Positions 21,532-24,769 of a stretch of DNA of 29,479 bases are shown piece after piece. Source of the DNA: Candidatus Bathyarchaeota archaeon (GTDB lineage Archaea > Thermoproteota > Bathyarchaeia > 40CM-2-53-6); the NCBI GenBank assembly GCA_005882955.1, contig VBBB01000067.1, positions 1,745 through 31,223 on the forward strand, in the 5' to 3' direction. A program made the position numbers and the translations under genes. Numbering within the stretch: the stretch's first letter is position 1; every line of letters begins with the position of its first letter. Below the pieces are notes generated by a model that was given only the letters and a program-made list of their open reading frames with translations, ran no database searches and was not told the DNA's origin.

Positions 21532-21899
21532 TGCAACAGATAGCAGCCGATGTCCCCCGAGCGCTGAAGGTTAATTGTCCCCTGCGCGTTATAAAGATTG
21601 ATTACGCGCGATTTCCCAATCATAACTCTGAAGATAGAAAAAATCGATGAAGCAAAATTCTAGAACTTTCCAGAATTTTCAAATGAGGTTGGCAGCGGTC
21701 TAAGCTTCGCGTGGGATCTCTCACCACACTACCACAGAGATCGCCTGGGAGATTCACTTCCGTGCTTCCGGTACGAGCGTTCCTCGTTCTTTCGGAATGG
21801 GTACGGGTCCTAGCTCCCAGCTATGGCCGCCAACCCCACTAAACCCCACGGGTCAGAAATCGCTTACATAAGCCTTCCCGGAAAAGCCCGTCCATCCGA

Positions 21900-24263: not shown

Positions 24264-24378
24264 AACGAGTCATCAGCTGATCCCAACAGCTACGATCAGA
24301 CAAATGATTCAGTTATCTTTATACTGATAGTTTTCGAGCCGGCCGCTCGGTGGGGCCTCGAGCCTTCAAATCAGTTGA

Positions 24379-24569
24379 GGGGCCGTAGTCTAGCCAGACC
24401 CATTCCAAGAGATGGGTCCTAGAAAGGAATGACGACGGGCTCCAGAATATATTACAACGGGTAAGCAGACCTCCAGTTGGCGGGATGACGAAATTCAGGA
24501 GCGCGTGAAGATACCCGTAGACGAAAGACTCGGCGGATGTCGTGGGTTCAAATCCCACCGGCCCCACCA
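24379..24569 (+). tRNA. trnW: tRNA-Trp(CCA) with three introns (17/17a, 37/38, 45/46) and encoded CCA
   Basis: Acceptor stem GGGGCCG/CGGCCCC-A-CCA; T arm GTGGG-TTCAAAT-CCCAC; anticodon arm ACGGG-CTCCAG^A-CCCGT. Removing 24396-24424, 24446-24512 and 24521-24538 gives a normal 77-nt cloverleaf. Confidence 0.92.
24446..24512 (+). ncRNA. Anticodon-loop intron with box C/D-like guide elements
   Basis: ACGGGT (24457-62) is complementary to tRNA nt 38-43 and followed by D-like CAGA (24466-69). C-like ATGACGA (24485-91) and GTGAAGA (24505-11). TCAGGAGC (24495-24502) is 7/8 complementary to the anticodon region. Confidence 0.65.
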
Positions 24570-24581
24570 TATCTACAACAC

Positions 24582-24591
24582 TCTTCTTTTT
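24582..24591 (+). terminator. T-rich archaeal terminator after tRNA-Trp
   Basis: TCTTCTTTTT, 13 nt after the CCA end. Confidence 0.5.
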
Positions 24592-24769
24592 GATTGCGGA
24601 CGTTGAGGAAACAAGAACGTATCTTGTACGGGGACCAAGCTGTAAAGTAGGCATACTGGCTTACGAGGTTCACCCTTGCCGCAGCTTTCCACGGGAACGG
24701 TCTGGCCAAGCAGTCGCATGCTTAATCTTAATACCAGAACTACTATCGTCGTAGCACGTAGAACACGTC

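Follow-up and report, generated by a model that had tools for sequence, protein, structure and literature searches.

A tRNA-Trp gene interrupted by three predicted introns, one of them guide-like, in a soil Bathyarchaeia genome

A gene for tRNA-Trp(CCA) occupies positions 24379-24569 (+ strand) of the window, that is, of the whole 29,479-nucleotide stretch of DNA that was analysed, in the genome of Candidatus Bathyarchaeota archaeon, one of the soil Bathyarchaeia, whose assembly amounts to 1.47 Mb and is 77.6% complete. Its 191 nt are divided into four exons and three introns of 29, 67 and 18 nt, with the anticodon CCA at 24442-24444, within exon 2. The gene and its flanks contain the following features:

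24318-24323, +, TATA-box-like TTTATA, lying some 55 nt ahead of the mature 5' end; putative promoter
24350-24358, +, leader element GGUGGGGCC, the perfect complement of the tRNA 3' end at 24560-24568, including A73 and CC
24379-24395, +, exon 1 (17 nt): acceptor 5' strand, U8, A9, D-stem 5' strand and D-loop to C17; invariant in 13 species
24396-24424, +, intron 1 (29 nt): D-loop, at 17/17a or equally 17a/18
24425-24445, +, exon 2 (21 nt): remaining D-arm, G26, anticodon-stem 5' strand and loop to G37
24446-24512, +, intron 2 (67 nt): canonical 37/38 site; conserved tRNA-Trp guide-like intron
24454-24469, +, 12-nt antisense element 1 (24454-65) followed by the D'-like box CAGA (24466-69)
24470-24491, +, hairpin (24470-83), 3-nt bulge and C'-like box AUGACGA (24485-91); K-turn-like with D'
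24492-24508, +, 12-nt antisense element 2, AAUUCAGGAGCG (24492-503), with D-like CGUGA
24513-24520, +, exon 3 (8 nt): A38, anticodon-stem 3' strand, A44 and G45
24521-24538, +, intron 3 (18 nt): variable loop, 45/46; relaxed HBh' motif
24539-24569, +, exon 4 (31 nt): G46-C48, T arm, acceptor 3' strand, A73 and encoded CCA
24584-24591, +, T-rich run TTCTTTTT; possible archaeal terminator

Excision of 24396-24424, 24446-24512 and 24521-24538 leaves, as an earlier sequence-only reading of this DNA had proposed, a 77-nt tRNA-Trp(CCA), which ARAGORN accepts, and restores a cloverleaf in which the acceptor stem has 7 bp and the anticodon and T stems 5 bp each, A73 is followed by an encoded CCA, and the D-stem consists of three Watson-Crick pairs and a U13-U22 mismatch (U-C in some relatives). 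The coordinates and splice motifs which that reading assigned to the three introns are, every one, present in the sequence. Each motif comprises a 4-bp central helix, with one mismatch in intron 2, flanked by 3-nt bulges, one per strand, each with its predicted cut after the second base; as regards the outer helix, they conform in relaxed form only. Neither ARAGORN nor the Rfam tRNA model calls the unspliced locus, so the genome would appear to be without tRNA-Trp, and correct annotation of Bathyarchaeia needs methods that are aware of multiple introns. What Infernal returns instead is a sub-threshold tmRNA match (25.9 bits, for a model gathering cut-off of 47 bits), which spans exactly 24379-24569 by way of the acceptor stem and T arm.

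Exact matches to the 5' end of the gene come almost entirely from soil and sediment Bathyarchaeia genomes, and one grassland-soil Bathyarchaeota genome record holds an identical 191-nt gene. A search of 21 same-genus genomes recovered, from 19 of them, 18 distinct congener genes, which were aligned and are without exception three-intron tRNA-Trp genes. The D-loop intron is present in 13 of these 18, with lengths of 22, 25, 28, 29 or 30 nt and a stem that varies in sequence and always pairs, while in the other five the D-arm is uninterrupted (GUCUAGCCAGGGAUGAC) and a 46-nt intron stands at 25/26 instead. Across the 13 species that share the architecture described here, 74 of 77 exon columns are invariant, those that vary in exon 2 being 24428 and 24430 only; the corresponding counts for the introns are 13 of 29 columns (intron 1), 32 of 67 (intron 2) and 13 of 18 (intron 3).

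This pattern bears on two readings in which the locus would not be a working tRNA gene. One takes it for a decaying or silent tRNA-Trp pseudogene whose working counterpart lies in the unassembled 22% of the genome, a view that agrees with the 77.6% completeness of the assembly and with the lack of spliced RNA among the RNA-library contigs (see below). Yet the exons stay nearly invariant in 13 species while the introns drift, the promoter is conserved, and compensatory changes preserve the splice motifs. Moreover, no other tRNA-Trp candidate, intron-poor or otherwise, was found in the 77.6%-complete genome by ARAGORN, Rfam or BLAST, nor was a tRNA-Trp found at any second site in complete-looking congeners. 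The genome being 78% complete, a second tRNA-Trp may exist, but we judge a pseudogene very improbable. The other reading places a protein-coding region on the minus strand, where an open frame indeed exists (ORF 24319-24654, 111 aa), and would make the tRNA-like features incidental. Conservation, however, follows the tRNA exons and not codons, and the congener indels (intron 1 ranging over 22-30 nt and intron 2 over 64-73 nt) are not multiples of three, which excludes the antisense ORF and leaves this reading with next to no credibility.

For intron 1, the two notations of the site describe the same product because an A flanks both cuts. Its central helix joins exon CUAG (24390-93) to intron CUAG (24419-22), the bulges are CC^A on the 5' and AA^A on the 3' side, and a 7-bp inner stem (24397-403 with 24412-18) closes the 5' bulge; with this inner stem present and an outer helix absent at the 3' cut, the motif is of the relaxed HBh' type. 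The CUAG/CUAG helix, 3-nt bulge and 7-bp stem recur in local folds of 19 homologues, in whose alignment the proposed partners pair in 97.5% of cases, as against 25-47% when they are slid, and both-sided compensatory changes occur in six of the seven inner-stem pairs. Uninterrupted D-loops, which are found also in many other Bathyarchaeia, read AGCCAGGGAUGAC in the relatives where splicing of the present gene is predicted to give AGCC followed, across the joint, by AGGAAUGAC; the sole difference is base 24428, which is variable within the D-loop-intron group as well. This spliced-like sequence in intron-free alleles fixes the junction of intron 1. The 17/17a site had been thought unusual, but a D-loop position is not a very unusual one: a D-loop BHB intron of Aeropyrum pernix was cleaved in vitro (PMC3241643), and Asgard archaea have many introns in the D-arm (bioRxiv 10.64898/2026.10.13.758758). 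Several other tRNA candidates of the host genome deviate from the usual D-arm sequence in their first 30 bases, and these may be further D-arm introns.

Intron 3 lies at 45/46, which is among the listed intron sites of archaeal tRNAs (PMC4090602). Its central helix is formed by CCGU (24515-18; C40-U43) and GCGG (24533-36), its bulges are AG^A and AU^G, and it has a 3-bp inner stem, CGA/UCG, without an outer helix. In most relatives the inner stem has 4 bp, the window having A at 24525 where they have G, and its variants in local folds (CGA(G)/(C)UCG, CAC/GUG, CGU/ACG and CUU/AAG) covary; over 17 sequences, pairing stands at 87.5%, compared with 28-54% when the partners are slid, with compensatory changes at two inner-stem pairs. 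Bathyarchaeia that lack an insert at 45/46 have a contiguous ACCCGUAGGUCG, identical to the predicted spliced sequence, and the junction of intron 3 is thereby fixed. Intron-free alleles at both non-canonical sites, together with this degree of pairing in introns 1 and 3, go well beyond what would arise by chance.

It could be argued that only the canonical intron is spliced and that the 29-nt D-loop insert, the 18-nt variable-loop insert, or both, are retained as expansion hairpins: tRNAscan-SE output for Asgard genes often displays enlarged D-loops (bioRxiv 10.64898/2026.10.13.758758), and removal of the inserts is not seen in the RNA contigs. Both inserts, however, keep the exact geometry of a 4-bp helix and a 3-nt bulge through compensatory changes, close relatives have insert-free alleles, and the helix of a retained intron 3 would disrupt the anticodon stem, all of which makes retention hard to sustain and, in our estimation, most unlikely. 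If spliced, as is highly probable, introns 1 and 3 would be small passive introns, with one well-defined bulge beside a 4-bp exon-intron helix.

Intron 2 is of another kind. In its bulge-helix-bulge (BHB) motif the anticodon stem serves as the outer helix and CUCC (24440-43; C32-C35) pairs with GAAG (24507-10), forming a central helix whose C34-A mismatch is conserved; AG^A and AU^A make up the bulges, and the inner helix is weak, at only about 2 bp. Its length is near the 65-nt median of tRNA-Trp introns that nest a box C/D RNA (PMC4090602), and its interior resembles such a guide. Within antisense element 1, ACGGGU (24457-62) is complementary to A38-U43 and would, by the N+5 rule, direct modification to C39, though this guide is degenerate in some congeners. 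Antisense element 2, AAUUCAGGAGCG, is complementary to G31-i3 of the pre-tRNA with one A-A mismatch, and counting N+5 from C24504 leads to C34 if the box starts at 24504; its GGAGCG is kept in nearly all homologues examined, and the 3' half of intron 2 is the best-conserved intron sequence in the genus. Between the two elements, the D'-like and C'-like boxes could form a K-turn with tandem G-A pairs. The pair between D' position 2 and C' position 5 is a standard one in 29 of 43 sequences as scored by script, and in 32 after correction by hand of three D' boxes that the script had mis-picked (C-G 16, U-A 8, A-U 7, G-U 1); in the window itself it is A-C. This covariation supports the K-turn. The same plan, namely an element with ACGGGU, a D'-like box (CAGA in this gene, CUGA or CCGA in others), a hairpin, a bulge, a C'-like box (consensus AUGANGA), a GGAGCG element and CGUGA, is shared by about 40 Bathyarchaeia tRNA-Trp introns.

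The terminal boxes of a C/D RNA are another matter. A terminal box C (RUGAUGA) is not found at the required distance in intron 2, where 24447-53 reads AUAUAUU, and at the position of a terminal box D (CUGA) stands the non-consensus CGUGA. The exon sequence AUGACGA (24428-34), identical to the C' box, was considered as a box C and rejected, its distance being unworkable and unconserved and four relatives reading ACGACGA; likewise, no box C at a workable distance or conserved was found across the 5' splice junction of intron 2. Terminal C/D boxes are similarly deficient in the Sulfolobus solfataricus tRNA-Trp intron (PMC3326292), and in Haloferax and Pyrococcus positions 34 and 39 are methylated under the guidance of the tRNA-Trp intron (PMC4090602, PMC7994747). 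Given the missing terminal box C and the non-consensus box D, the case for guide function is one of analogy. Intron 2, which we do not class as a canonical C/D RNA, fits an intron that would work as a tRNA-Trp guide intron does: an ancient tRNA-Trp intron, with one good C'/D' K-turn and two 12-nt antisense elements forming a box C/D-like guide.

The host genome encodes enzymes suited to such a gene. It has two genes of the EndA family, one of which, taken as the alpha subunit, best matches the catalytic subunits of the Aeropyrum, Sulfolobus and Pyrobaculum heterotetramers (E 3e-44), keeps the context of the catalytic Tyr, His and Lys, and aligns without gaps over the specificity loop, with Lys at both positions that correspond to K44 and R46 of A. 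pernix. That loop was found to enable cleavage of introns that are relaxed or lie in the D-loop (PMC3241643). The second gene, a diverged paralogue in which the catalytic His is missing, looks as a beta subunit should, and, judged by these sequences, the two are a Crenarchaeota-type alpha plus beta pair of the alpha2 beta2 class. Genes for RtcB, fibrillarin and Nop5 are also present. An acceptor plus T-arm scan finds about 27 tRNA genes, some 24 of them over-long (98-188 nt), so broad splicing must work in this host; Rfam detects just 11 tRNA genes in the genome, and ARAGORN places an insertion in 25 of its 27 tRNA calls. Intron-rich tRNA genes are therefore the rule here, with nearly the whole tRNA set interrupted, and an abundant lineage of soil mesophiles joins the archaea in which almost all tRNA genes are split.

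The core of the sequence-only reading, which placed introns of the endonuclease type in the D-loop and at the 37/38 and 45/46 sites, is thus upheld by restoration of the cloverleaf, by the intron-free alleles, by covariation and by the splicing-enzyme genes. We hold it highly probable that this is a functional tRNA-Trp(CCA) gene, the sole one detected in the 78%-complete genome, with three introns spliced through EndA and a guide-like intron 2. Its own TATA promoter would drive synthesis of a precursor with three introns, RNase P is assumed to cleave at 24379, the alpha2 beta2 EndA would cut each intron at a BHB or relaxed HBh' motif, and RtcB would join the exons, while L7Ae, Nop5 and fibrillarin, together with intron 2, could direct 2'-O-methylation of C39 and C34.

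These events would compete for the same strands. The helix of intron 3, as had been pointed out, uses nucleotides 40-43, a motif that can be read directly from the sequence, and folding predicts the competition with the anticodon stem that this implies. The competition is nonetheless three-way and not two-way, because a guide element of intron 2 also binds the anticodon arm: strand 39-43 could pair alternatively with the 5' strand of the anticodon stem, with antisense element 1 of intron 2 or with intron 3, and strand 27-37 with antisense element 2, so that the precursor would have to pass through alternative folds. Folded as a whole at minimum energy (-72.6 kcal/mol, z -3.6), the precursor shows the motif of intron 1, the guide duplex (24435-24448 with 24493-24506, 12 of 14 paired) and the helix of intron 3 together, and leaves the anticodon stem unformed. 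With intron 2 taken out and intron 1 kept, the prediction gains the anticodon stem and loses the intron 3 helix; where intron 3 is the sole intron left, its helix persists in the predicted fold, still without the anticodon stem. When only intron 2 is left, the BHB conformer is less stable than the guide-duplex minimum by about 8 kcal/mol. The ordered splicing that had been proposed accords with these folds, the order itself being a thermodynamic prediction: the model makes it likely that the guide duplex with its methylation, and the removal of introns 1 and 3, would come first and cleavage at the intron 2 BHB last. That one intron has to be excised before the next motif can form is an idea already stated in the tRNAscan-SE 2.0 paper (PMC8450103). 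The gene could serve as a natural test bed, in which three splice motifs compete with one another and with a methylation-guide duplex, and whose relatives swap introns or carry up to five.

In the upstream flank, each of the 18 distinct congener genes in the alignment carries a (C/T)TTATA motif, placed at a similar distance; a scan for sigma-70-type promoters and intrinsic terminators was set aside as uninformative for an archaeon. The core of leader element GGUGGGGCC is conserved across the genus, and in the minimum-energy fold of leader plus gene the element replaces the true acceptor 5' strand in pairing with the 3' end. Leader elements of at least 8 nt complementary to the tRNA 3' end occur in 5 of the 27 host tRNA genes, compared with 4% of pairs in which leader and tRNA are mismatched. 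The GGGGCC repeat (24352-57/24379-84) suggested a further intron, a fourth, near the 5' end, which was discarded because the geometry of a 4-bp helix and bulge does not fit there. Downstream of the gene, the congeners cannot be aligned. Two metatranscriptome runs, belonging to the study from which this DNA may come, each contain one 100%-identical contig, covering 24360-24542 (183 nt) and 24368-24543 (176 nt); both start 11-19 nt upstream of the mature 5' end and carry all three introns, and they are compatible with a precursor transcript or with DNA carry-over. Contigs from two other studies (X17, X18) derive from relatives, with 1-7 differences each. Spliced joints, circular junctions and mature-length pieces were not present among the contigs of the four RNA-library runs, a form of data that drops short or rare molecules.

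The structure of this gene is already known from other archaea. In Thermoproteales, tRNA genes can have multiple non-canonical BHB introns, with a maximum of three per gene (PMC4033280, PMC4090602, PMC8450103), and in Asgard archaea they have up to five each, those of the D-arm being often missed (PMC11291895; bioRxiv 10.64898/2026.10.13.758758). The statement that triple-intron tRNAs belong mainly to Thermoproteales hence stands insofar as they are well described there, and falls insofar as they are no longer confined there, occurring also in Asgard and Bathyarchaeia. With Thermoproteales such as Pyrobaculum, Thermofilum and Caldivirga (Sugahara 2008) the present gene shares BHB or relaxed introns at canonical and non-canonical sites, 45/46 included, a predicted alpha2 beta2 EndA with the Crenarchaea-specific loop, and nearby introns that may need to be removed in sequence; it differs in that its host is a mesophilic soil member of the Bathyarchaeia, relatives of which within the class reach five introns in tRNA-Trp, and in that the isoacceptor is Trp, which makes the canonical intron a long, guide-type one. 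Like the Asgard genomes, that of the host has most of its tRNA genes interrupted, D-arm introns that gene finders miss, and introns gained or lost among close relatives, but it belongs to a different phylum, and in Bathyarchaeia a LAGLIDADG cassette sits in physical linkage with an allele whose intron has been swapped (see below). A search for literature linking Bathyarchaeota with tRNA introns found no paper.

Two further likenesses concern individual introns. Intron 2 resembles the guide introns of Haloferax volcanii, Pyrococcus (sR50) and S. solfataricus tRNA-Trp in its 37/38 position, its length of about 65 nt and its antisense to 34 and 39 (PMC4090602, PMC7994747, PMC3326292), the S. solfataricus one being a 65-nt circular intron (PMC3326292). 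Unlike in those, just the internal C'/D' K-turn is clear in the host, nucleotide 39 is C and not U, and the target strand of the guide is also a partner of the 45/46 intron. Intron 1 recalls pre-tRNA-Thr2(UGU) of A. pernix, which has a D-loop intron cleaved by an alpha2 beta2 EndA bearing the Crenarchaea-specific loop (PMC3241643). The likeness is at the level of the D-loop; the tRNA is a different one, and the A. pernix intron was cleaved in vitro, whereas the present one is predicted.

Across the wider class, tRNA-Trp genes have from one to five intervening sequences, at 17/17a, 25/26, 28/29, 37/38, 45/46 and in the T-loop. Five-intron genes of 228-233 nt occur at six loci of other Bathyarchaeia (L028, L029, L034, L050, L070 and L076), with introns in the D-loop, at 28/29, 37/38 and 45/46 and in the T-loop. 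Five introns equal the highest count reported for Asgard tRNA genes and exceed the Thermoproteales maximum of three.

A gene for a LAGLIDADG homing endonuclease (PF14528) sits at nine or more congener loci, with a copy of the tRNA-Trp 5' region on either side (for example, L018:652-1500 with an ORF at 727-1338, and L010:779-1435); in three species it is frameshifted, and the insertion point corresponds to 24430/24434 of the window. Upstream of the endonuclease gene are a relic promoter, leader, exon 1 and a fragment of intron 1, and downstream is a complete tRNA-Trp gene with its own promoter. The cassette accompanies all four U22C alleles and most alleles with the 25/26 intron; no copy was found in the host genome. 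As a tentative and rather doubtful explanation, the cassette may rewrite the tRNA-Trp intron set at the DNA level, an insertion of about 850 bp at tRNA position ~22-25 bringing with it the endonuclease gene, a fresh promoter, a leader and a 5' tRNA segment. The incoming segment would carry either U22C or, replacing the D-loop intron, an intron at 25/26, both changes lying at the presumed cut site; the former promoter, exon 1 and intron 1 would stay behind as a relic, and the allele in the window would be uninvaded and cleavable. No general route for the arrival of introns was found in the Asgard study (bioRxiv 10.64898/2026.10.13.758758), and the cassette, if it acts in this way, would offer a means of swapping or gaining introns in archaeal tRNA genes that can be observed directly.

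A separate observation in the same window concerns its 5S rRNA gene (21687-21834, - strand; Rfam 60.8 bits), which has a 26-nt insert in loop C, at 21765-21790, with BHB geometry: a central helix UCCG/CGGA, bulges AA^A and AG^C and an inner stem ACGAG/CUCGU. A literature search found no paper that uses the phrase '5S rRNA intron'. Congener 5S genes of 121-122 nt lack exactly those 26 nt, others have inserts of 27-56 nt with a different yet paired stem, and some are split at the same point by about 220-385 nt.
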